In this document: positions 3,014 to 19,337 of the stretch, one piece after another
Position numbering within the stretch: the stretch's first letter is position 1
Layout: every line of letters starts with the position of its first letter
From: Patescibacteria group bacterium
GTDB taxonomy: Bacteria > Patescibacteriota > Minisyncoccia > Phycocordibacterales > Zambryskibacteraceae
Reading direction: 5' to 3'
Assembly (NCBI GenBank): GCA_038061835.1
Contig: JBBTYJ010000015.1
Location: 3,907 to 67,906 of the forward strand
DNA: 64,000 bases
Position numbers and translations under genes: made by a program
Notes under the pieces: model-generated
Told to the model about the DNA's origin: nothing
Seen by the model: the letters and a program-made list of their open reading frames with translations, nothing else
Databases searched by the model: none

Positions 3014-3036
3014 AATATCAAGGTTTAACCTTGCTC
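3014..3036. repeat. REP-like palindrome copy 2 (AATATCAAGGTTTAACCTTGCTC)
   Basis: 23-bp exact direct repeat of copy 3; contains palindrome CAAGGTT-T-AACCTTG; 30 bp upstream of RAYT start. Confidence 0.7.
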
Positions 3037-3065: not shown

Positions 3066-3743
3066 ATGTCCACACGAGTTCCATTTGGCACTGGGGAGTG
3101 GTATCACTGTTACTGTCGTGGCGTTGATAAACGCAAAGTATTTTTAGAATCAAAAGACTATGAAAGATTTATTCTTTCTATGCATGCTGGAAATGGCCCA
3201 TTAGCCGTACATCTCTCAAATATTTTGAGAAATAAAAAATTTAATGAGATTCTTACAACACTTTTTCAGAATGAACATCTGGTTGATATTGGAGCATTTT
3301 GCCTTATGCCAAATCATTTTCACTTACTGCTTAAAGAAGTGGAGGAAGGTGGTATATCGCTTTTTATGCAAAAGGTTTTAACGGGATACACTATGTATTT
3401 TAATGAGAAATATGAGCGGAAGGGTGCCTTATTTGCAAATACCTATAATTCTCGACATATTTTTGATGACAGATACTTTAAGAAAGTTATAGCCTATATA
3501 CATCTGAACCCGGTCGAGTTAGATGAAATAAATTGGAAGGTGGGAAGTGGGGATATTAGAAAAATAGAAAAAAGACTACGTAATTATAAATACTCGAGTC
3601 TCTCTGCCTTTACAGATATCGAAAATCCAAGCAACTCTATTATCTCTGGTTCGGTTTTAGAAATATTTGACTCACTTCCATCAATCAGAGAAATGCTGGC
3701 AGACGCTCAAACTTATTATCAAGAACAAAATATCAAGGTTTAA
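3066..3743 (+). CDS. IS200/IS605-family Y1 (HuH) transposase-like, REP-associated tyrosine transposase (RAYT)-like
   Basis: HuH motif FCLMPNHFHLLL, catalytic-Tyr region YIHLNPV, N-terminal WYHCYCRGVDKRKVF; flanked by REP palindromes; 225 aa. Confidence 0.8.
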   Translation: MSTRVPFGTGEWYHCYCRGVDKRKVFLESKDYERFILSMHAGNGPLAVHLSNILRNKKFNEILTTLFQNEHLVDIGAFCLMPNHFHLLLKEVEEGGISLFMQKVLTGYTMYFNEKYERKGALFANTYNSRHIFDDRYFKKVIAYIHLNPVELDEINWKVGSGDIRKIEKRLRNYKYSSLSAFTDIENPSNSIISGSVLEIFDSLPSIREMLADAQTYYQEQNIKV

Positions 3744-3751
3744 CCTTGCTC
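3729..3751. repeat. REP-like palindrome copy 3 (AATATCAAGGTTTAACCTTGCTC); overlaps RAYT stop codon
   Basis: Exact 23-bp repeat of copy 2; TAA stop of the RAYT gene lies inside the palindrome (GTT TAA CC). Confidence 0.7.
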
Positions 3752-7455: not shown

Positions 7456-7520
7456 AGGACCAGATAAGCAATATATGGCTTAATTGAGCCATTTTAGAAA
7501 TATTTCACCATTTAAATTGG

Positions 7521-8240: not shown

Positions 8241-8834
8241 ATGAATACAGAGATTGAAGCAAAATTCACTCGTATTGACCCAAGAAACGTAAGAAAACGT
8301 TTAATCGAGTTAGGCGCAAATTTAAAACAACCCGAAAGATTAATGCGAAGGAAAAATTACGATTATGGCGATAATCGGTTAAGAAAGGTCGGGGGTTGGA
8401 TTCGTCTACGAGATGAGATAAATAGAGTGACACTTGCTTATAAACAACTGGATGATCGGACACTTTACGGAACTAAAGAAATTTTAATAACCGTGGAAAA
8501 CTTTGAAGAAACGGCAATTTTTTTGACAACCATAGGTTTACAAATAAAATCCTACCAAGAAACAAAAAGGGAATCGTGGTTGTTAGAAGAAGTAGAAGTG
8601 GAAATTGATACATGGCCCTGGGTTCCGTCATTTGTGGAAATTGAAGGAAAAGATGAAGAGAGTGTTAAAAAAACTGCCAAAATTTTAGGATTCGACTGGG
8701 GGGTGGCAAAACACGGTAGTGTAGAAAATGTTTATCAAGAGATATTTGATGTTACGGAAGAAGAAATAGATGGATGGAAAGAAATTGTTTTCTCGCCAAT
8801 ACCTGCATGGCTAGAAATCAAACGTAGGGGATAG
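8241..8834 (+). CDS. CYTH-domain protein (triphosphate tunnel metalloenzyme / CyaB-like)
   Basis: N-terminal EIEAKF motif typical of CYTH; start taken at MNTEIEAKF (the track ORF starts 11 codons earlier). Confidence 0.7.
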   Translation: MNTEIEAKFTRIDPRNVRKRLIELGANLKQPERLMRRKNYDYGDNRLRKVGGWIRLRDEINRVTLAYKQLDDRTLYGTKEILITVENFEETAIFLTTIGLQIKSYQETKRESWLLEEVEVEIDTWPWVPSFVEIEGKDEESVKKTAKILGFDWGVAKHGSVENVYQEIFDVTEEEIDGWKEIVFSPIPAWLEIKRRG

Positions 8835-9168
8835 AACTCTTGAATTTGATTACATGTCGCACAATATACCTTTTACGACTCTAAGATAGCTTTAAATGAA
8901 CTTCGATTATATTACATTTATAATACGCTATAGCATAAATTAGATGTATTCTCTTTCATGCATCCTCGGATCACAATTTAATTAATTATTAAAATTTTCC
9001 CTGATTAAAGATCGGATAATTAAAAACTAAAAATACAACCTCCCTCTCCCCTATTTTGAAGGATAGATAGGGAAGTTTTAACATTTGATTTTATGAAAAT
9101 TTCTGTTAATATAGCTTCAGAATTAGCAAAGTTCTACGTTACTTTCGGATTGAAAAAGGAGAAAGTCA

Positions 9169-9732
9169 ATGGAACAGACAGAGAGTCTTTATGTTAATAA
9201 GACTAATGTACACCTTGAAACACCTGATTATCGACTGTTTGCAAAACCGTACGGGCCCCTTTATCCAGAAGCCACCGGGAGGATTTTTAGACTTGAGCAC
9301 CATGAATCCTCACCATCAAGTGTTTCCTACATTAAATCGATCGCTCCTATTATCTTTGACTTTAAGATAAGCGAAGAGTTACCAGTCAAAGTATACTACG
9401 AAGCAATGATTGATAATGAAAGAGTACTCATGGTTCGAATCGAGTATGGACAGTATGAACGTCTCATCGACCTTCAGAAAAGGAATGGGAACTGGCTCCT
9501 TTTGTTTCTTTGCACACCAAGATGCCTATTAAGTGAGGGGGCTAAAAGAGCTAAACTCATCATGATCATGCTTGATTCAGAGTATGCTTTCCGAGAAGAC
9601 ATGACGGCGGAAGAAAGGGATGCACTAGATGTTGAACGTCAGTCATTCGCGATGCGAATGGGCTGGACGCAAATGAGTATCCCCGAACTAGAGAAACAGT
9701 GCAAAACACTGACCGACAAGCTGCCATACTAA
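9169..9732 (+). CDS. Hypothetical protein (orphan plus-strand gene with its own SD and terminator)
   Basis: AAGGAGA SD 6 nt upstream; 330-bp AT-rich upstream region; followed by a terminator; no recognisable domain. Confidence 0.5.
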   Translation: MEQTESLYVNKTNVHLETPDYRLFAKPYGPLYPEATGRIFRLEHHESSPSSVSYIKSIAPIIFDFKISEELPVKVYYEAMIDNERVLMVRIEYGQYERLIDLQKRNGNWLLLFLCTPRCLLSEGAKRAKLIMIMLDSEYAFREDMTAEERDALDVERQSFAMRMGWTQMSIPELEKQCKTLTDKLPY

Positions 9733-9752
9733 TAAGTCGTAAGTCTTGAAGG

Positions 9753-9787
9753 GGTCGCTACTATGGGAGGAGTGGCGACCTTTTTTA
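9753..9787 (+). terminator. Rho-independent terminator
   Basis: GGTCGC-loop-GCGACC followed by TTTTTTATTT. Confidence 0.75.
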
Positions 9788-9907
9788 TTTATCCAAAAGG
9801 CCGGTCCACCACTTGAAAGTAAAAGTCATCAATAGATAAGCCGGTAGATAGATAGGTACCAAAATAAAAAACAAGATTAGGCGCACTGTCTTCATGAATA
9901 TTTTCAT
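9785..9907 (-). CDS. 40-aa hydrophobic peptide ORF (not in track) whose ATG abuts MITE copy A
   Basis: Translation MKIFMKTVRLILFFILVPIYLPAYLLMTFTFKWWTGLLDK; speculative. Confidence 0.25.
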   Translation of the reverse strand: MKIFMKTVRLILFFILVPIYLPAYLLMTFTFKWWTGLLDK

Positions 9908-9973
9908 CCCGTTAGAAGTTTACTTCTCATAATATTACCACTATGACTCAAACTTGTTGAACTTCTAACGGGA
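9907..9973. mobile_element. MITE-like element copy A (67 bp; 14-bp TIRs TCCCGTTAGAAGTT/AACTTCTAACGGGA; TSD TTCA)
   Basis: Perfect 14-bp terminal inverted repeats, 39-nt interior, TTCA direct repeat at 9903-9906 and 9974-9977. Confidence 0.7.
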
Positions 9974-9974
9974 T

Positions 9975-10217
9975 TCATACAGATTGCTTAGCTGACCAAA
10001 GTGACATAATCATTCGCCAAATAAACATAACTGCCGGTTTGATATAAAACCAAACTATATTTAACACATCTTTTACATAATTTATGGTATTTTTCCCTTG
10101 TTCCGAGTTGGCTACGTCAATAATAGACCAATTCAAGAAATATTTAAGGAGCGCTAAAGCAATAATGATAAGTATCAGCCAACTGACAAAACCCTTATTT
10201 CTCGGCATATTCTCCAT
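9975..10217 (-). CDS. Small membrane protein (~80 aa, 2 TM)
   Basis: Only the part of track ORF 9975..10415 downstream of the M23 gene stop is non-overlapping; MENMPRNKGFVSWLILIIIALALLKYF... Confidence 0.4.
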   Translation of the reverse strand: MENMPRNKGFVSWLILIIIALALLKYFLNWSIIDVANSEQGKNTINYVKDVLNIVWFYIKPAVMFIWRMIMSLWSAKQSV

Positions 10218-10245
10218 TCTACTCCTCGACAAAGCTCGGAGCAAG

Positions 10246-11529
10246 TTAAAGAACCGGTAAGTAAGCAAGAGGATCGAGATACGCATCTCGTCCTTTCGCA
10301 ATCGGGACAAAGACCTGTTTACATCCGATACTGGTAGTGAATTGTCTAATCTCCACACCTTGTGACGCAAAGAGTCCGACGTGGAGATGCGGACCCTTGG
10401 AATACCCCGAACCATTTACTCCAGGCACCCCGCCTGAATAGCCAATCATCTGCCCCACGCTCACCTCTTGACCTTTTGGCACTAATGAAGCAGATAGATG
10501 GGCGTAAATACTCGTTAGGCCATTATCGTGTTTTATTAGTATCCAGCGACCATACGAATAACAGCCTTTCTGGTTATCCGTATTACCAATACCTTCGATT
10601 ACACCAGCAAGCATTGAACGCACCGGAGTACCCATGGAGGCTCGAAAATCAAGACCATTATGAAAACAGTCAGCGCTGCCATAGATACTGCAATCCGACC
10701 TGCCAAAAAGACCTGTAATAAACACATTATCCAAAGGCCAATCCAAAATGCCGCCCTTGGGTTTAGGAAAAAGAGATGGGTCAAGCGTAATACGTAGTTC
10801 TTGTTCCAAGCGATCAAGATCAGCTTCTGACTCTTTCTGTCGCGCTATGTTTGCTTGGATAAGTTTCTGATATTCCACTTCTTTGTTTTTTGTCTCAGTG
10901 AGAAGTTTTGCCTTTGCCTTCTGATTCTCTTCAACGACCGACTTTTGTCCACTTAACTGTCCACGCAAACTCACTTGTTCCTTTTTTATTTTCTCTTTCT
11001 CCATTTTTTGTTGGTTGAGTATCCTACGAGTCTCGCGTAAGGCGGTAATTTCTTCTTCCAGACGAGCATTCAGACCTGCAAGTTGACTCCCATCCCTCCA
11101 AATATCCGATAATCGGATAGAGGCCAGTATTTGGAGGATTAACGGACTAGAATCGTAATCGGATAAGGAAGTGAGAGTATTGGCAATCGCCGCTCTATGC
11201 GTGATAATCTGTTTCTCTTTCTCGCTCATGGCATTCTCAAGCGAACGGATGGTCAAATCGGCGGAAGTAATTTTCGACTGAGTAATGCTGATATCTTTGG
11301 CAAGCTTCTTTTTGGTCGTATCGAGCGATTTAACAGCGCTGCCGAGAGTCTGACTTTCTTTATTGATTTCATCAAGCTCCACTTGAAGCTTCTTCTGTTC
11401 TTCAACGAGCACTTCTCTATCTCTTCTCACCCGTTCTATTTGTTGTTCCAGTTCGCTTGGATTAGCGGCATTTAGGACAAACGGTATAATCAAAAAGATA
11501 ATAAAAATACTAATGAATCTCTTGTTCAT
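10246..11529 (-). CDS. M23-family (LytM-domain) peptidase with signal peptide and long coiled-coil (EnvC-like)
   Basis: HNGLDFRASMGTPVRSMLAGVI...GPHLHVGLF M23 motifs; N-terminal hydrophobic signal; Q/E/K-rich coiled-coil. Confidence 0.85.
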   Translation of the reverse strand: MNKRFISIFIIFLIIPFVLNAANPSELEQQIERVRRDREVLVEEQKKLQVELDEINKESQTLGSAVKSLDTTKKKLAKDISITQSKITSADLTIRSLENAMSEKEKQIITHRAAIANTLTSLSDYDSSPLILQILASIRLSDIWRDGSQLAGLNARLEEEITALRETRRILNQQKMEKEKIKKEQVSLRGQLSGQKSVVEENQKAKAKLLTETKNKEVEYQKLIQANIARQKESEADLDRLEQELRITLDPSLFPKPKGGILDWPLDNVFITGLFGRSDCSIYGSADCFHNGLDFRASMGTPVRSMLAGVIEGIGNTDNQKGCYSYGRWILIKHDNGLTSIYAHLSASLVPKGQEVSVGQMIGYSGGVPGVNGSGYSKGPHLHVGLFASQGVEIRQFTTSIGCKQVFVPIAKGRDAYLDPLAYLPVL

Positions 11530-11595
11530 CCCGTTAGAAGTTTACTGATAATAAAATCTTTACCAAACTTTATGAGAGCTGAACTTCTAACGGGA
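11529..11595. mobile_element. MITE-like element copy B (67 bp; identical TIRs; TSD TTCA)
   Basis: Same 14-bp TIRs; 39-nt interior about 50% similar to copy A; TTCA at 11525-11528 and 11596-11599; sits exactly between the GluRS-like stop and the M23 start. Confidence 0.7.
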
Positions 11596-11596
11596 T

Positions 11597-12475
11597 TCAT
11601 TTATTTCTGATTTTACCAAGATTGAAATGTTTTCGATTTACCCAAGCTAGTTTTTTTTCGTCGAAAATTGCACCTCCTTTATGAACTTTCGAGAAATCAA
11701 AAACATTTATCAATTCATCAAGAGTAAAAATTTCCTGCTCCGTACCCGGATTCCAACCCAAGAGAGCCAAGTAGTTAATAATAGCCACAGGTAAATATCC
11801 TTTTTGTCTATAATAATCAAGCGAAACTGATTCCCCGTGCTTGCGTTTGGAAAGCTTTGATCTATCCGGAGCCAAAATCAGAGGGAGGTGCGCATAGATT
11901 GGCCGTGGCGCGTCGATTGCCTCCTGAATCAGAATCTGTCTCGGAGTGTTGGAGATGTGGTCCTCGCCGCGGATCACATGTGTAATCTCCGCTTCAAAAT
12001 CATCAACCACAACCGCTAAGTGATAAAGGGGTTCGTTAAGATTTTTTGCAATAATAAAATCTCCAAGTTCGGTGGTATCAAACTCTACCTTACCGCGAAC
12101 CAAATCCTCAAAAACCATTTGTTTATTAGGATTGCGAAAACGCACCACTTCCCTATTCTCACCCTCTGTCTCCGTCGAAATATAGGCCTTATTGATTTGT
12201 ATTAATTTATTCAAGTGAGATTTGTAAATTTCCGTGCGTTCAGACTGATGCCAAAGCTCGCCATCCCTTTCAAAACCGAGCCATTTGAGACTTTCAAGCA
12301 TGCTTTCTTCATATTCCTTCTTGGAGCGCACTCTGTCCGTGTCTTCTATTCTAACTACAAAATCTCCACCATTCTGTCTGGCAAATAGATAGTTGAAAAG
12401 CGCAGTCCTCACGTTACCGATATGCAGCGGTCCTGTCGGCGATGGTGGAAATCGGGTAATAATTTTTTGATTCAT
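11597..12475 (-). CDS. Glutamyl-tRNA synthetase catalytic-domain-only protein (GluQRS/YadB-like length, no anticodon-binding domain)
   Basis: Class-I motifs PSPTGPLHIGN and KLSKR; 292 aa ends right after the catalytic domain (..WVNRKHF). Confidence 0.75.
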   Translation of the reverse strand: MNQKIITRFPPSPTGPLHIGNVRTALFNYLFARQNGGDFVVRIEDTDRVRSKKEYEESMLESLKWLGFERDGELWHQSERTEIYKSHLNKLIQINKAYISTETEGENREVVRFRNPNKQMVFEDLVRGKVEFDTTELGDFIIAKNLNEPLYHLAVVVDDFEAEITHVIRGEDHISNTPRQILIQEAIDAPRPIYAHLPLILAPDRSKLSKRKHGESVSLDYYRQKGYLPVAIINYLALLGWNPGTEQEIFTLDELINVFDFSKVHKGGAIFDEKKLAWVNRKHFNLGKIRNK

Positions 12476-13617
12476 TTCTCTATCTCGTGTTCAAGAGCAA
12501 TTTTAAGAATTTCTTCGGCAATCAAACGCGCGGCGTTTGACTTATAAAATGCTTTGGCTGCTGTTTTCATTTTTTCGCGTTCGATTTCATTTGTAATCAG
12601 CCGTTCAATCTCCGATGCAAGGAGATTAGCCGTAAGATTATTTTCTTCTATTACCTCGCACGCTCCGGCACGAGCGTAGGCAAAGGCGTTCGAATGCTGG
12701 TCATGACTGATTTTTTCATTAATAGGCACGATAATTGACGGTACACTCCAAGACGCGATTTCAAAAATAGTTGAACCAGCGCGCGAAATAACCAAAGAAG
12801 CCACCCCGGCCGCCATGCGCATTGTCAAAACATTAAGATAATCAAGGGCCCTGTATCTCTCTTTATAAAGAGAGTCAAGAAGAACTGCCTCGCTGGTAGC
12901 TCTGACTTCCATAATATTGTTTTTGCCGACCTGATGAATAATTGCGTATTTTTCAACCAAACTCTTAAGATCTTCCAAAATCGTATCATTAATCTTTTGT
13001 GCGCCTTGCGAACCGCCAAGTATTAAAATAACCGGAATATTTTCTTCAATTTTTAAAAATTCGCGGGCGCCTGAAGTGATGGGAAGAGCGATTTCCTTAC
13101 GCACGGGCTGACCGGTATAAGCCACCGCTCCTGCCGGGAAATATCGGACAGCTTCTTTATAAGAAACGGCGACGATCCTGGCAAATTTCCCAGCCCACAA
13201 ATTTGTCTTTCCGGGAATAGTATCGGACTCGTGGATTACCACTGGAATGCGTAAAAGGCGCGCCGCTACCAACGCGGGGAAACTTGCGTAGCCTCCTTTG
13301 CCAAAAACAACATCGGGATAAAGTTTATATACCATGTAGAGCGAGGAAAGAATCCCCCACCCTGTCCTAAATAGATCAACAAAATTAGGGATAAAAATCC
13401 ACCAATGAGCAGAGCGGCGAATTTTGCCTGCACTATTTTTCTTATAGGTAATACCATTTTCAAAGAGTACTCCGGGATTATACGGAGTGGGAGACATATA
13501 AAATAACTCTAGTTCAAGAAGTCTTTTCTCTTTAGTCAGATTATTGAGTTCTTCAGCAATGGAAACTATCGGGTAGAAGTGTCCCCCGGAACCACCACCA
13601 GTAAATAAGATACGCAT
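12472..13617 (-). CDS. murG: UDP-GlcNAc:undecaprenyl-PP-MurNAc-pentapeptide GlcNAc transferase MurG
   Basis: MRILFTGGGSGGHFYP N-terminus, GT28 family pattern; 381 aa. Confidence 0.9.
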   Translation of the reverse strand: MRILFTGGGSGGHFYPIVSIAEELNNLTKEKRLLELELFYMSPTPYNPGVLFENGITYKKNSAGKIRRSAHWWIFIPNFVDLFRTGWGILSSLYMVYKLYPDVVFGKGGYASFPALVAARLLRIPVVIHESDTIPGKTNLWAGKFARIVAVSYKEAVRYFPAGAVAYTGQPVRKEIALPITSGAREFLKIEENIPVILILGGSQGAQKINDTILEDLKSLVEKYAIIHQVGKNNIMEVRATSEAVLLDSLYKERYRALDYLNVLTMRMAAGVASLVISRAGSTIFEIASWSVPSIIVPINEKISHDQHSNAFAYARAGACEVIEENNLTANLLASEIERLITNEIEREKMKTAAKAFYKSNAARLIAEEILKIALEHEIEK

Positions 13618-13694
13618 CCCGTTAGAAGTTAATTTTTATAAACTTGTTGGTAAAAAATATCATGGTAAGTAATTTGAAAAAACTTCTAACGGGA
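13617..13694. mobile_element. MITE-like element copy C (78 bp; identical TIRs; TSD CGCA)
   Basis: Same 14-bp TIRs; 50-nt interior; CGCA direct repeat at 13613-13616 and 13695-13698 (reverse complement TGCG = murG start ATGCG). Confidence 0.7.
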
Positions 13695-13705
13695 CGCATT
13701 GTTGT

Positions 13706-14800
13706 TTATTTGGTTCTAGAAATCGAGAGTATTATACCCACTTCAAGAAGAGTGATAAAAAGAGAAGTACCACCATGGCTCACAAAAGGCAACGTAATGC
13801 CCGATAACGGGACCACTCCAAGCATAGCGCCGATATTGACGAATGCCTGGGATGTAATCATTATAACAATTCCAACAACTGAGAGTCTAGCAAAAATATT
13901 CGTCGTTTCCGAAGCAATTTTAATACCTCGAGTGGCAAAGAGAACGAACATTATCAATAAGAAAACAGAACCCACAAAACCAAATTCTTCGGCCGCCACA
14001 GCAAAAACCGAATCCCCTATTGGCTCGGGAAGATAAGTGAATTTCTGAACACTTTGACCAAAACCACGACCAAAGAGACCACCGGAACCGATCGCGATTA
14101 GAGATTGCTGGACTTGGTAACTTGCTCCTTGGGCATCCACTTGCATATTTAAATAAGTGGTAATGCGTTGCATAATATACGGCCGCATGAAAGCCAGGAG
14201 CCCCAAACCGATAGCGCCACCTAAGATAATCAAAAAGACATAACGCCACTTTCCTCCAGCAGCTATGAACATCGCCATACCAGTAAAAGCAATCATGAGG
14301 AAATTATCGGTATCCGGTTGATTTAAAAGAAGCGCTGCCGAGATAACCAAAAGGATAATAAGTGGCAAGAAACCCCGACGAAAAGTTTTTATTCTATCCT
14401 TGATCCCGGCAAGCCAAGCCGCGAAATAAACAATAAAAGCCAGTTTTAATATCTCGGAAGTCTGGAAGGAAATACCGCCAAACACAATCCAGCGCCGAGC
14501 ACCGGCATGTTCGAAACCAATTTCCGGTACTAACACCAAAATATTGAGAATAATAGCTATGATCAGAAGCCAGAAAGCGGACTTCTTCCAGATTTGAACA
14601 TCCAGACGCGACGCAATTACCATCGCCACAGTACCAGCCAAGAGTCCAAAAATGGTTTGCGAGAAAGCAATACTCGAATAATTTGAATTCTCTTTCGCTA
14701 AAAGAGCAAGCGCTGCCGAGCTAAAAATAAAAAAACCAAATACTATTAAAATAATAGAAATAAATAAAAACGATCTATCGACTTTTCGACCATTTAGCAT
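13706..14800 (-). CDS. ftsW: SEDS-family peptidoglycan glycosyltransferase FtsW/RodA
   Basis: 10-TM protein; conserved GFGQSVQK...LPEPIGDSVFAVAAEEFGF region. Confidence 0.9.
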   Translation of the reverse strand: MLNGRKVDRSFLFISIILIVFGFFIFSSAALALLAKENSNYSSIAFSQTIFGLLAGTVAMVIASRLDVQIWKKSAFWLLIIAIILNILVLVPEIGFEHAGARRWIVFGGISFQTSEILKLAFIVYFAAWLAGIKDRIKTFRRGFLPLIILLVISAALLLNQPDTDNFLMIAFTGMAMFIAAGGKWRYVFLIILGGAIGLGLLAFMRPYIMQRITTYLNMQVDAQGASYQVQQSLIAIGSGGLFGRGFGQSVQKFTYLPEPIGDSVFAVAAEEFGFVGSVFLLIMFVLFATRGIKIASETTNIFARLSVVGIVIMITSQAFVNIGAMLGVVPLSGITLPFVSHGGTSLFITLLEVGIILSISRTK

Positions 14801-14843
14801 AATTGGAAGAATTATAGCATTCCATCCGTCATACGGGACAGCA

Positions 14844-15890
14844 CTAACTAATGAGAGCCAGTATGACCCCGGTGATAGCGCAGATGACAGAAACTATCCA
14901 ATAACGCATAACCACTTTCTCTCTCGGCCAACCCAGCGCTTGGAAGTGATGATGAAGCGGAGCAACTTTAAAAACTCTATATCCGTTGAAAAATTTATAC
15001 ACGTAAATCTGGATAAGATCAGAAGCGGTGGTGGCTGCAAGAGGCAGAGCAACAATGGGTAATAGGAGCACTGAATCCGTGAGAAAAGCGATAACCGAGA
15101 GAGTAACAGTAAGAGCCATCATTCCCGTTTCTCCCATATAAAAACGCGCTGGCGGGACATTAAACCATAAGAAAGCCAGAATAGCGCCGGCTATGGCGCC
15201 GGACAAGGCAGAAATGTCAATCTGATTATTTATGAAAGCAATGATCGCAAAAGCGGTAAAAACGGAAGCGAGCACTCCTCCGGACAAACCATCAATACCA
15301 TCGATAACGGAAGTCGAGAAGGTGGCCAACATTACAACAATAAAGAAGGGTATAAACCAGATTCCCAAATACCAATCCCCATTAAATGGGATGTGAACAA
15401 AATTAAAATCAAGTTTGTAATAGAACCACAAACTGATGACGAGACCAATACCGAGAACGAGAATAGTTTTGACCTTACGATAAACCAACGCATCTTGAGT
15501 AAATCGACTTTGGCCATAGATATGTACCAGATCATCTGCCAAACCTATAAACGCAGCCAGGAAGAACGCTCCTAAGGGTACCAGGGTTTGTGATCGTGAG
15601 AAGAAGTTGAGTTTTAAAGTTAGATCAGATGGTATTGCCAAAGAGAGAAGATAGATGGCACATACGGCAAAAAGTACGGCCACCCAAATTATCACTCCCC
15701 CGACCTTGGGAGTACTCAGTTCGTGTTCGGTATTATGAATATTTTTAAAAGCTTCGGAAGTATTGGCATTCGTCCTCGGCGATCTTTTCCACATCTTGTA
15801 CCGGTAAAAATATCTGGTAAAGAATGGTGTAATAATAATACCAATAAAGAAAGTAAGAACTGTCGGAAAAATAATTTTAAGAATATCCAT
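14844..15890 (-). CDS. mraY: Phospho-N-acetylmuramoyl-pentapeptide transferase MraY
   Basis: DDL, GIDGLSGG and NVPPARFYMGETG motifs. Confidence 0.9.
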   Translation of the reverse strand: MDILKIIFPTVLTFFIGIIITPFFTRYFYRYKMWKRSPRTNANTSEAFKNIHNTEHELSTPKVGGVIIWVAVLFAVCAIYLLSLAIPSDLTLKLNFFSRSQTLVPLGAFFLAAFIGLADDLVHIYGQSRFTQDALVYRKVKTILVLGIGLVISLWFYYKLDFNFVHIPFNGDWYLGIWFIPFFIVVMLATFSTSVIDGIDGLSGGVLASVFTAFAIIAFINNQIDISALSGAIAGAILAFLWFNVPPARFYMGETGMMALTVTLSVIAFLTDSVLLLPIVALPLAATTASDLIQIYVYKFFNGYRVFKVAPLHHHFQALGWPREKVVMRYWIVSVICAITGVILALIS

Positions 15891-17734
15891 TATGGTCTGT
15901 GGCCTACGATAAAGACATTGTACCAGATGGCTAACATCAAAAGGAGATAGATTTTTCTTGAGTTATCACTCTGGCCGGAGATATGATCATCTATAAGATT
16001 TTTAATAAACGAGATATTCATGTGATTCTGGATATATGGATTATCCAAAATAGTATTATAAATACTTTGCCTCTCTTTCGTAAACCAGTTTCTAACGGGT
16101 GTTGGAAAACCAAGTTTCCTTCTCCTGCGCACCGATTCAGGCAAAATTTGTCTAAACGCTTCACGTAAAAGATATTTAGTGATCCCGCGTTTCCATTTAA
16201 ATCGATCTGGAAGACTCGACGCAAGACGCGCCACCTCAATATCTAGAAATGGCACTCTCAATTCGAGTGAATATGCCATAGTCATTTTGTCAGCCTTGGC
16301 CAAAATATCTCCGACAAGCCAAGTATTAATATCAATGTATTGCATTTTGGTCGAATCACTAAAACGAGCAGCTTCCTTGTATAGGTCTCTGATTAAAAAC
16401 TTTTGCTCTGGTTTATCTTTCCAGAGAGATTTAATTTCTGTTCCATTAAAAACAGAGGCGTTGCCAATATACCATTCTTCAAGTTTTTGACTTGCTCTCG
16501 TGGCATAATTTTTACCCCTAAAATCAAAGGGTAATTGGCTAATAAATTTCAAGATAATATTAGGTATCCAAGTAATCCATCGGCGCGCGAAAGGTTCTAA
16601 GTAAATATTATAACCGCCAAAGAGTTCGTCCGAGCCCTCGCCGGAGAGTACTACTTTGACGTGCCGAGCCGCTTCCCGAGCAAGAAAATATAATCCCAGG
16701 GCCGAGGGATCTGCCACTGGTTCATCAAAATGCCATACCGCCTTGGATAAATTTGTAAAATATTCTTCGGCTCCGATAGTAATTTCGCAATGATCAGAAT
16801 CGATCGCTCTAGCGGTCTCCAAGGCTTCTTTGCTCTCGTTTAGAGATTCAAAGCCAACGGTAAATGTTTTAATTTTTTTACTCGCATTGAACGGGATTGG
16901 AGTATTATTTCTAATTTTCTGCATCAGGGTCGCAATGATACTCGAATCTATGCCTCCGGATAAAAAGGATCCAACCGCCACATCGGCTACCATGTGATGA
17001 GCAACAGAATCCTCCATCGTTCTAAGAATTTCTGCGGCCGTTTTTTTCTCATTTAGAGAATTATTCTGTTTGAATTCAAATTGCCAATATTTTTTGATCT
17101 CCGTCGCTCCGGTTTTAACATCTATTTTCATAAAATGGGCAGGCAATAGTTTGAAAACATTTTTAAAAAAAGTTTCCTCAAGAGGATTATATTGGAACGA
17201 CAGATAATTGAAGACTGCTTTGTCATTTACTTCCGATCTAAATTTAGGCAGAGCAAAAAAACTTTTTATTTCTGAAGAAAAAGCGTTGATTTGATTTCCC
17301 TCTTTCCAATAATAAAGTGGCTTGATACCGAAGAAATCGCGTGCCAGAAAGACTTTTTTATCCATGGCATCATAAATGGCAAAGGCAAACATGCCGCGTA
17401 AACGCAGCAATATATTTTCTTCCCACTTTTCGTATCCTGCTAAAATTACCTCGGTATCGCTATTAGTTTTAAACTGATAATCTTTCAGCTCATTTTTAAT
17501 TTCCTTGTAATTATAAATTTCTCCGTTAAAAATAAGCGTGAGTCTGCCATCGTTTGAAGTTATCGGTTGTTTACCTCGGGCAAGATCGATAATCGAGAGA
17601 CGCCTCATGCCAAGCGCTAGATATTCATCAACGAAGAAACCTTCATCGTCCGGCCCGCGATGATGAATTAACTCCGTCATGTTTTTAATGGCGTCTTTTT
17701 CTTTAAAATTAATGATCCCCGCTATACCGCACAT
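15890..17734 (-). CDS. asnB: Asparagine synthase-like glutamine amidotransferase (AsnB family)
   Basis: N-terminal MCGIAGI Ntn nucleophile; PP-loop SGGIDSS; 614 aa. Confidence 0.9.
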   Translation of the reverse strand: MCGIAGIINFKEKDAIKNMTELIHHRGPDDEGFFVDEYLALGMRRLSIIDLARGKQPITSNDGRLTLIFNGEIYNYKEIKNELKDYQFKTNSDTEVILAGYEKWEENILLRLRGMFAFAIYDAMDKKVFLARDFFGIKPLYYWKEGNQINAFSSEIKSFFALPKFRSEVNDKAVFNYLSFQYNPLEETFFKNVFKLLPAHFMKIDVKTGATEIKKYWQFEFKQNNSLNEKKTAAEILRTMEDSVAHHMVADVAVGSFLSGGIDSSIIATLMQKIRNNTPIPFNASKKIKTFTVGFESLNESKEALETARAIDSDHCEITIGAEEYFTNLSKAVWHFDEPVADPSALGLYFLAREAARHVKVVLSGEGSDELFGGYNIYLEPFARRWITWIPNIILKFISQLPFDFRGKNYATRASQKLEEWYIGNASVFNGTEIKSLWKDKPEQKFLIRDLYKEAARFSDSTKMQYIDINTWLVGDILAKADKMTMAYSLELRVPFLDIEVARLASSLPDRFKWKRGITKYLLREAFRQILPESVRRRRKLGFPTPVRNWFTKERQSIYNTILDNPYIQNHMNISFIKNLIDDHISGQSDNSRKIYLLLMLAIWYNVFIVGHRP

Positions 17735-17738
17735 AAAT

Positions 17739-18689
17739 TTAATTGCTACTTATATACCGCATTACGGCGTTAACCAATACACGCGCATCGTCAAAACGAC
17801 CTTCCCCGGCAGAAGCACCGAGGATGGAAACAATAATCGGCCGGCCCAATTCCGGGTCAAAGACAAATGCCAGATTGCCGCCGGCAGTATCGGTAAAACC
17901 AGTCTTAGACGCCATAAGTCCAGGAATTTCCGCGACCAAGCTATTGGTATTTTGGGCGACATGCAGATGATTATCCAATGATTGAAAAGTGGTGGTAGCC
18001 TCTTTGGTTGCATCAAAAAAGGCGGGATGATTCGTGAGTATATATTCCAAAAGAGTACTAATATCTTTAGCCGTGCCATAAGCGCCACCCTTCACATTCG
18101 ACTCATCCAAGCCCGTTTCATTCCAAAAATAAGTGTTCTTAAGATTAAGTTCTCGGGCCTTATCATTCATTTCTCCGACGAAATCATTAATAATTTCCGC
18201 AGACGTTGCATTTGCGCTCGAGAGAGCTCCGAGAGACAGGGCTATCGCCCGCACACCATCATTGGATGACGTTAATAGAGAAAAGTCCAAGAGATCCTTA
18301 AGTTTCCAGTGTTCATTTTTGTATAGACCACTATTGCCTTCCGCGTTTAGGGCTTCCTCAGTTACGATAACCGTGCCATACAAAGGACTTAGATCTTCAG
18401 CAATTAAGGCGGACATGATCTTGGTCAGAGAAGCAAGCGAGAGACGCATGTTTTCGTTTTTAGCAAATAAAACGGTTCGAGTTCTTAAATCATAAACGTA
18501 AACCGCTTTTGCCCCGATTGTTATAGGAGGAAAAGAAACGGCAGCCACCCCGGTAGGAACTGATTTATCTTTCCTTTCCACTTTTGTGTTAAAAATTAAA
18601 GAGACTATAAACAAGCACGAAAGAATAATAGCCAAAACAAGAAAAAATCTTATCTCCGTATGACGTATGGTAGAAAATTGATCATTCAT
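17739..18689 (-). CDS. D-alanyl-D-alanine carboxypeptidase (S11, PBP5-like)
   Basis: SLTK (SxxK), SSNDG (SxN) and KTGFT (KTG) motifs; N-terminal TM/signal. Confidence 0.8.
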   Translation of the reverse strand: MNDQFSTIRHTEIRFFLVLAIILSCLFIVSLIFNTKVERKDKSVPTGVAAVSFPPITIGAKAVYVYDLRTRTVLFAKNENMRLSLASLTKIMSALIAEDLSPLYGTVIVTEEALNAEGNSGLYKNEHWKLKDLLDFSLLTSSNDGVRAIALSLGALSSANATSAEIINDFVGEMNDKARELNLKNTYFWNETGLDESNVKGGAYGTAKDISTLLEYILTNHPAFFDATKEATTTFQSLDNHLHVAQNTNSLVAEIPGLMASKTGFTDTAGGNLAFVFDPELGRPIIVSILGASAGEGRFDDARVLVNAVMRYISSN

Positions 18690-18767
18690 CCCGTTAGAAG
18701 CCGCTACTAGTGACTCGCTGATAATAAATGATATTCATAGTTTTGTATATATGAGCTTCTAACGGGA
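18689..18767. mobile_element. MITE-like element copy D (79 bp; TIRs TCCCGTTAGAAGCC/AGCTTCTAACGGGA, 13/14 match; TSD TTCA)
   Basis: TIRs as in A-C with one mismatch at the inner end; 53-nt interior shares CTGATAATAAA with copy B; TTCA at 18685-18688 and 18768-18771; the scpB stop codon TAG lies inside the TIR. Confidence 0.65.
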
Positions 18768-19337
18768 TTCATTTGATTCTGCGGGCGAAGCTTTTTCAAA
18801 CTCCTCTATTTTTTTAAAAGCAACTCGATATTCCGGTAAATCTTCGCGACAAGTGATCCCTAAATGCTCAAAAAGTTTTAGGGTGGGCTTGTAACTATAG
18901 CTCCTCCCCACTCGAACCGTTTCGTCAGGTGAAGCAAGCGTGTCATCGGGACGTTCAATAAGACCTCGAATAAGAAGCGAGCGGAGAATAAAACTTGAAT
19001 TCACCCCGCGAATATGATCGATCTCGCGGCGGGAAATTGGACCCCTGTAGAGAATAATGGCGAGAGTTTCAAGACTGGCGCGACTAAGCTCGCGAGAAAA
19101 TTCTTCTTTGACTAGACTCTCGATAAGATTACCGGCATCTGGATGAGTACCGAGGCCTGCAAATTCGCCATCGAAAACAATGACAATACCCCTGTTTTTA
19201 TAAAATTCTCCCAATTTTGATAACGTGATTCTTATTTCTTCCGGTTTATTGCCGGTTATTTTCGCCAATTCAGAAACAGAAACCGGTTCGTTCTTGAAAA
19301 AAAGTATTGATTCTATTTTTAATTCTAAATTAAGCAT
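18759..19337 (-). CDS. scpB: Segregation and condensation protein B
   Basis: Winged-helix ScpB pattern ...ISRREIDHIRGVNSSFILRSLLIRGLIE; overlaps scpA by 8 nt. Confidence 0.85.
   Translation of the reverse strand: MLNLELKIESILFFKNEPVSVSELAKITGNKPEEIRITLSKLGEFYKNRGIVIVFDGEFAGLGTHPDAGNLIESLVKEEFSRELSRASLETLAIILYRGPISRREIDHIRGVNSSFILRSLLIRGLIERPDDTLASPDETVRVGRSYSYKPTLKLFEHLGITCREDLPEYRVAFKKIEEFEKASPAESNESR

Follow-up and report, generated by a model that had tools for sequence, protein, structure and literature searches.

A family of short, probably mobile inverted-repeat elements at start codons of a Patescibacteria cell-wall operon

We analyzed a 64,000-nucleotide (nt) stretch of contig JBBTYJ010000015.1 from a Patescibacteria group bacterium (hereafter the window), in which four short inverted-repeat elements, copies A to D, all lie within positions 9903-18771. 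The genes flanking all four copies are on the minus strand, and Pfam recognizes among the neighbors an M23 peptidase, a truncated GluRS-like protein (GluQ-type), MurG, FtsW, an MraY-like transferase, AsnB, a D-Ala-D-Ala carboxypeptidase and ScpB. The 14-mer TCCCGTTAGAAGTT has eight matches in the window at two or fewer mismatches, which form four inverted pairs; a dinucleotide-preserving shuffle gives a chance expectation of 0.42, and 0 of 100 shuffles reached eight. All eight arms lie where an earlier reading of the window (the original prediction) had placed them. Both arms are exact in copies A to C (TCCCGTTAGAAGTT and its reverse complement). In copy D the arms are AGCC/AGCT variants that co-vary (…AGAAGCC / AGCTTCT…) and match each other at 13 of 14 positions. 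A lone arm-like 11-mer at 16089-16099 (one mismatch), inside asnB and with no partner arm, is probably a chance match.

Copy A (9907-9973, 67 bp) has arms at 9907-9920 and 9960-9973 around an AT-rich interior of 39 nt. It is flanked by a target-site duplication (TSD), TTCA, at 9903-9906 on the left and 9974-9977 on the right, which reads TGAA on the minus strand. Downstream lies a minus-strand open reading frame (ORF) of 40 amino acids (aa) at 9785-9907 (…LPAYLLMTFTFKWW…), whose ATG is rebuilt by the copy; a homologous ORF is conserved in six relatives, and it probably encodes a real small membrane protein. Upstream is a 77-aa membrane-protein gene (~9975-10208, minus strand), and the repeat TGAA contributes the TG of the small ORF's ATG as well as the TGA stop of this gene, which the upstream TSD copy retains. 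A small membrane gene had been proposed upstream of copy A, and a membrane protein is indeed found there. However, because the homologues in relatives are 74-79 aa long, the real gene is the one at ~9975-10208 rather than the 146-aa ORF at 9975-10415, which overlaps the 3' end of the M23 gene. On the far side of the 40-aa ORF, a strong terminator-like hairpin (15 pairs and then a T-run) at 9748-9785 separates it from a convergent plus-strand gene at 9169-9732.

The other three copies sit between longer genes, all of them on the minus strand. Copy B (11529-11595, 67 bp, interior 39 nt), with TTCA at 11525-11528 and 11596-11599, lies between a gluQ-like gene upstream (11597-12475) and the M23 peptidase gene downstream (10246-11529); as at copy A, the upstream repeat (TGAA) contains the TGA stop of the upstream gene. 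Copy C (13617-13694, 78 bp, interior 50 nt) is bounded by CGCA at 13613-13616 and 13695-13698 and sits on the start codon of murG (12472-13617). Copy D (18689-18767, 79 bp), with TTCA at 18685-18688 and 18768-18771, has dac (17739-18689) downstream and scpB (18759-19337) upstream, and its interior is 51 nt rather than the 53 nt first counted. Reading the flanks directly thus gives the same four pairs of 4-bp repeats as had been proposed.

On the coding strand the elements end in …CTAACGGGA followed directly by TG, and in 4/4 copies the downstream ATG takes its A from the last base of the right arm. To this extent the proposal that all copies occupy stop/start junctions holds. It does not hold for copy C, since the ftsW stop (TAA, 13706-13708) is 11 nt upstream, which places this copy on a start codon and not at a junction. 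The companion proposal, that no gene is disrupted, is nearly true: the scpB frame enters copy D and now ends at the TAG inside the arm, adding Ser-Arg and slightly altering the end of the protein.

The interiors of the four copies are essentially unrelated in sequence, with A and B as the exception. Their pairwise identities are 48-67% (about 50% as first reported); a reverse-orientation control gives 53-57%, and only the A-B pair (67%) exceeds it. Copies A to C recur unchanged in other, independent assemblies of the strain and therefore are not assembly artifacts. The remaining 55 kb of the window has no copy, and the four copies are crowded into 9 kb (9903-18771) despite their unrelated interiors; local hopping, import by recombination and target availability are possible reasons for this clustering.

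By its exact MurG protein, the window belongs to a Zambryskibacteria-like Patescibacteria genome from Hainich groundwater. We compared this operon with that of ten Zambryskibacteria-like relatives whose MurG proteins are 75-91% identical. Each of the four junctions is empty in every relative that covers it, and once the element and one copy of the 4-bp repeat are taken out of the window, the closer relatives align with it base for base. At the copy A site, which is empty in relative L124, the 77-aa gene and the tiny ORF overlap as ATGA, and the gluQ/M23 junction of copy B is an empty ATGA overlap in nine relatives. The ftsW/murG junction of copy C is a short spacer that is empty in ten relatives, and in the closest one (MurG 91% identical) its flanks are identical to those of the window, with no element. 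The scpB/dac junction of copy D is empty in 6/6 covering relatives, with an 8-nt overlap of the two genes in the five where dac has its start at that position. Because the orthologous sites are empty, the four copies are lineage-specific insertions with target-site duplication and not conserved regulatory hairpins. The original prediction had named this comparison beforehand as the test between mobility and a conserved hairpin, and the outcome falls on the side of mobility. The relative CAZYVS01 has family members at other loci while its four window sites are empty, so the family is present in the lineage but at different sites.

Two other features were seen in these relatives. In L127, an unrelated insert of ~390 nt at the murG/gluQ junction (8634-9027) contains a small DUF559-like ORF flanked by CTCCCCTTAxCAGGGGAG hairpins and represents a further type of junction-seeking insert among these genomes. 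Tandem heptamers, (CCTAAAT)n, occur at the ftsW 3' end/murG 5' region in L127, L128 and L132-L134 (locus ~7465-7500 or equivalent); the window is without them.

A scan of one genome per species with the pattern CCCGTTAGAAG-N38-68-CTTCTAACGGG gave at least 119 loci, in many Patescibacteria classes, Planctomycetota, Omnitrophota, Ratteibacteria, Nitrospirota/Nitrospinota, Elusimicrobiota, 'Deltaproteobacteria' and some Pseudomonadota. Among the loci listed is one contig binned as Nanoarchaeota, and five phage contigs carry family copies. What had been taken for a local family therefore extends over many phyla and phages, and many of its members lie in frame inside genes. The copies are 60-90 bp long and have no transposase coding capacity. 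Their ends are also not the fixed 14-mer first described. Only CCCGTTAGA is invariant among the variants, within a core of 9-11 nt, and the distal part of the arm changes complementarily, which gives the formula Y-CCCGTTAGA(AG) … (CT)TCTAACGGG-R for all copies. The outermost pair is C..G in 74/134 copies and T..A in 48/134, and it belongs to the inverted repeat. A metagenome scan for siblings of copy A returned no matches.

Some members of the family occur in unusual settings. The Mu-like transposable phage contig IMGVR_UViG_3300038429_000794 (L136, L139 and L141; MuA-type transposase, Mu F and capsid) has three copies with CCCGTTAGAAAT-type arms. At L004 (1139-1320), a complete copy and a duplicated 5' fragment of a signal-peptide gene are nested inside an outer copy with the arms CCCGTTAGAAAG…CTTTCTAACGGG, which suggests that the elements can carry or shuffle the 5' ends of genes. 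Paralogues in Planctomycetota have the element in common at their 5' ends. A larger autonomous element around these Planctomycetota copies was considered and rejected: the flanks that these copies have in common proved to be 5' ends from a family of paralogous genes, and one copy is nested.

Flanking repeats were assessed across 127-134 copies of the family. The direct repeat occurs in a single register, and the bases of T-N-N-A are identical on the left and right at 74-81% per position. As had been anticipated from the four window copies, 4-bp duplications are consistent throughout the family: the repeat is perfect in 84/134 copies, compared with a mean of 6.8 and a maximum of 15 in shuffles. 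Flank bases that depart from T or A co-vary as a duplication and not as stem pairs; for this reason the alternative parsing, a 2-bp TSD with a longer terminal inverted repeat (TIR), was rejected. The target consensus is R-T-N-N-A-Y.

Next, we considered where the copies reside. For each copy with a perfect TSD, the preinsertion site was rebuilt and set against all RTNNAY sites in the same loci. Start-codon-adjacent positions account for 17/71 copies (24%) versus 2.3% of RTNNAY sites (odds ratio 13, p 8e-13), and intragenic positions account for 14/71 copies versus 64% of sites (odds ratio 0.1). The family falls into two classes by interior composition. AT-rich copies, the type found in the window, lie exactly on start codons in 15/26 cases and show no length periodicity. 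GC-rich copies form double hairpins and are often located within long ORFs; in 29/35 cases their length is divisible by three.

One frame runs through about 27 copies, whichever way they are oriented, and reads PVRS-(14-20 aa)-[T/A]SNG. The hosts of such in-frame copies are recognizable housekeeping proteins and include RsmH, leucyl aminopeptidase, DnaE, SecA, CarB, Mfd, RibD, RluD and UvrC. When RsmH is aligned with its solved homologue 1m6y, the element peptide falls in a gap just before the DGIxxDLGxS motif, and in RluD, compared with 1v9f, ~28 residues fall between residues 219 and 221. None of the four window copies is an in-frame insert.

All four window copies form stems when folded as the mRNA strand, with energies of -27 to -31 kcal/mol and z scores of -4 to -7.6 (copy A, -27.4 kcal/mol, z -5.6; copy B, -28.8, z -5.9; copy C, -30.7, z -7.6). 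The base of the hairpin abuts the AUG, and in copy C the stem extends over it. The GC-rich interiors adopt a few recurrent double-hairpin architectures, and in an alignment of 11 sequences from one GC-rich subfamily, 9/28 predicted pairs show compensatory changes on both sides. In the same subfamily, C·A mismatches (8) and G·U pairs (4) occur at about the same frequency, and the copies lie in both orientations within genes; consequently, no strand-specific RNA function is seen. Hairpins at the DNA level or mutational correction of quasipalindromes explain the co-variation equally well.

Searches for regulatory signals in the elements gave little. Rfam 15 had no match at E values up to 10 over 9500-19200 and none at the gathering score in 14 loci, and none of the terminator-like sites of the region is inside an element. 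Each copy had been credited with a TATTAT or TATAAA box, but these carry no measurable promoter signal under sigma-70 rules, which may not fit these phyla. By that consensus, promoter-like sites in the region are not enriched (19 versus 20.6 in shuffles), and a match in the orientation of the gene occurs in 1/4 copies, only copy D. The score and position of the -10 box are the same in the gene orientation as in the reverse control. An ORF of 24 codons begins at the duplicated ATG of copies A and B and at its end overlaps the true start as ATGA. As a general feature of the family, such a relay ORF, or translational coupling, was rejected: 11/24 copies keep the frame open when read in gene orientation, as do 9/24 in the reverse control.

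A variable-sequence 4-bp duplication together with sharp inverted ends is, from what is established for DDE transposases, the signature of a staggered-cut transposase acting in trans. In agreement with the original prediction, no cognate enzyme is visible in the window: neither the gene neighborhood of the four copies nor the ten further ORFs scanned contains a DDE transposase, and there is no integrase among the ORFs scanned near the copies. Arm pairs up to 4 kb apart, in the window and the fetched loci, consist only of the arms of neighboring short copies. The Mu-like phage contig was rejected as the source of the enzyme since MuA chemistry produces 5-bp rather than 4-bp duplications.

The closest documented likeness is to the piggyBac/IS1380 superfamily, whose elements make 4-bp duplications (4-5 bp for IS1380). 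The piggyBac transposon makes a 4-bp TTAA duplication, has ends CCCTAGAAAG that start with CCC and chooses its target by the first T and last A, two bases that the T-N-N-A of the element shares. ISEcp1, of the IS1380 family, ends in CCTAGATTCT and makes 5-bp duplications. A terminal CC(C)…TAGA is common to the element (Y-CCCGTTAGAAG), piggyBac and ISEcp1, a resemblance between short motifs that proves nothing by itself. Unlike piggyBac, which requires TTAA, the element leaves the central two target bases free, and it has an extra variable Y/R pair outside the CCC. By this analogy the mobilizing enzyme could tentatively be a piggyBac/IS1380-like DDE transposase. A tblastn search with the ISEcp1 transposase against the window and the fetched loci gave nothing better than E 5, and no piggyBac- or IS1380-like transposase turned up near any copy. 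Because no fetched locus has an IS1380-like gene, this assignment stays a lead.

The window does contain one transposase gene, an IS200-like Y1 gene that resembles the transposases associated with repetitive extragenic palindromes (REPs), termed RAYTs (3066-3743, Pfam Y1_Tnp, E 6.5e-8). Three copies of a palindrome, (AG)CAAGGTTTAACCTTG(CT), bracket it at 2661-2677, 3019-3035 and 3734-3750. Together they look like a separate REP/RAYT-type system that is unrelated to the elements, as had been argued from the start.

Given these observations, we consider it very probable that the four sequences are copies of a nonautonomous, hairpin-forming DNA transposon that resembles the miniature transposable elements with inverted repeats known as MITEs. 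A transposase supplied in trans would insert the element at T-N-N-A through a 4-nt staggered cut, and repair would duplicate the tetranucleotide. In this gene-dense genome, only harmless insertions would survive. At start-codon targets of the form (A/G)TGNN, the duplicated TG together with the element's terminal purine would restore the initiation codon; the upstream stop would be preserved in the duplication's upstream copy or replaced by the TAG of the arm, leaving both genes intact. The element would then reside in the polycistronic mRNA as a stem of 14-19 bp with its base abutting the AUG. GC-rich members could survive within genes by virtue of arms that are stop-free in two frames and lengths that are multiples of three, and they would be translated as an insert of 20-28 residues (PVRS…SNG). 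We infer that survivorship rather than targeting explains the placement of the copies and that the insertions have near-neutral effects on fitness.

Several observations weigh against this account. The window, ~140 fetched loci and the phage contigs yielded neither an autonomous element nor a transposase with such ends. Since recent insertions have unrelated interiors, several distinct source copies would be required, and none was seen. The conservation of the arms is in part a matter of construction because the cross-phylum sample was chosen for exact 11-nt arms. Compensatory changes in internal hairpins are not obviously needed by a purely TIR-dependent parasite. Finally, a filter that admits only noncoding sites predicts that ~6% of AT-rich copies lie at start codons, roughly one-tenth of the proportion observed, and targeting or positive selection may be behind this excess. 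Related AT-rich interiors have a single orientation relative to the gene (7:0, in two clusters only), which hints at an orientation-dependent constraint. Pure survivorship explains neither the start-codon excess nor this orientation bias.

These last two points are what a mobile promoter or gene-start cassette would lead one to expect, in which AT-rich copies, part-domesticated, are kept because they drive or tune the downstream gene. The 15 AT-rich copies at start codons exceed the neutral filter, their related interiors face one way, a promoter-like match lies in copy D in the orientation of the gene, and the 5' ends of the Planctomycetota paralogues have the element in common. Nevertheless, promoter-like sites are no more frequent than in shuffles and match the gene orientation in a single window copy, a weak test if the sigma-70 consensus does not apply, and the reverse control equals the -10 box in score and position. 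We regard this explanation as improbable. A vertically inherited, nonmobile hairpin that regulates the operon, as an attenuator, an RNase processing site or a translational coupling device, is very unlikely. It would account for the strong mRNA-strand hairpins exactly at the AUG and for the 24-codon ORFs of copies A and B with their ATGA overlaps. It conflicts with the emptiness of all the orthologous junctions, the family-wide 4-bp duplications and the residence of copies in unrelated genes and phyla in both orientations, and neither Rfam, the terminator-like sites nor the relay-ORF control lends it support.

Site-specific recombination, in which a tyrosine or serine recombinase would integrate a small circle or cassette, is harder still to credit. 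Its attraction is that the ends of a circularized element, joined as CTTCTAACGGG-RTNNAY-CCCGTTAGAAG, would form an 11-6-11 palindrome with the architecture of a dif-like core (Xer/dif, attC) and that GTTAGAA and TTCTAAC, both present in the arms, look like integron core sites. Yet the empty targets hold only the tetranucleotide and no arm-like sequence, and these recombinases do not produce true 4-bp duplications whose sequence varies. An integron attC site in particular was rejected: the order of the core sites (GTTAGAA first, TTCTAAC last) is the reverse of that in attC (RYYYAAC…GTTRRRY), the flanking genes are core housekeeping genes, and the scanned ORFs include no integrase. Least credible of all is that the copies are REP/REPIN-type elements mobilized by the HUH Y1 (RAYT-like) transposase at 3066-3743. 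The window does have this Y1_Tnp gene, and the elements do form hairpins. But the gene is bracketed by the different palindrome CAAGGTTTAACCTTG, a homologue is present at only 1 of ~130 element-bearing loci, and the copies have target duplications, which single-strand transposition by HUH enzymes is not known to create. The RAYT was therefore rejected as the mobilizer.

The MITE-like transposon reading also has a wider and more speculative form. The elements could be the footprint of an uncharacterized, recently active transposition system, possibly prokaryotic and piggyBac-like with T-N-N-A targeting and seamless excision, that phages and other vectors have spread across at least six phyla, the elements being invisible to translation and some start-codon copies being co-opted as expression modules. 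We hold this to be rather unlikely as a whole; if true, such elements colonize essential genes (SecA and DnaE) and the start codons of the most compact bacterial genomes. Genomes of the candidate phyla radiation (CPR)/Patescibacteria are among the smallest and most gene-dense and are usually described as poor in mobile DNA. The family shows how a selfish element can proliferate in compact genomes, through rebuilt start and stop codons or through read-through as a harmless peptide. That the ends are exactly conserved across phyla is also a sign that uncultivated groundwater lineages and their phages have recently exchanged DNA horizontally.

There are practical consequences as well. The elements can mislead annotation (as spurious N-terminal extensions, split domains or false small ORFs) and are a source of protein insertions in conserved enzymes, and occupied versus empty sites could serve as a strain-level marker. 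The main interest lies in the mobilizing transposase. If it proves to be a T-N-N-A-targeting, piggyBac-like enzyme in bacteria, it would be of interest for transposon evolution and for genome engineering.

Full-text literature searches in an incomplete library, along with a 2024 review of prokaryotic MITEs, gave no description of these elements, and the family is apparently undescribed. In size, shared TIRs, a fixed 4-bp TSD (4/4 window copies) and insertion polymorphism, the elements agree with MITEs, while a related autonomous insertion sequence (IS) with the same ends was absent from the window and from ~140 loci. Correia/NEMIS and ERIC elements are similar in being small, noncoding and multicopy, with TIRs, a short TSD and presence/absence polymorphism, and in being co-transcribed as hairpins within operons. 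They differ in that their ends are unrelated in sequence to those described here, for which no parent IS is known; the Correia duplication is TA rather than the 4-bp T-N-N-A. Correia and ERIC are also confined to a genus or family, whereas the present family spans many phyla and about a quarter of its copies abut start codons exactly.

Rickettsia palindromic elements (RPEs) are selfish palindromes that lie in frame in unrelated housekeeping genes and are translated as a peptide insert (PMC10969869). The GC-rich members of the present family, unlike the four window copies, are likewise translated in frame in housekeeping genes. RPEs are ~100-150 bp long and restricted to Rickettsia and its relatives, whereas the elements described here are 60-90 bp long, have sharp ends and a 4-bp TSD and cross phyla. 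RPEs are not known to have clear TIR and TSD signatures. The GC clusters of fungal mitochondria are very short mobile double hairpins that can also lie within coding sequence and are not known to encode a transposase; compared by description, they differ in residing in organelle genomes, in their ends and in having no defined 4-bp TSD rule. The present family thus combines the anatomy of a MITE with an in-frame habit like that of RPEs, which does not imply that it belongs to the RPEs. What sets it apart is its spread across phyla, the rebuilding of start codons by its own end and a design compatible with translation.

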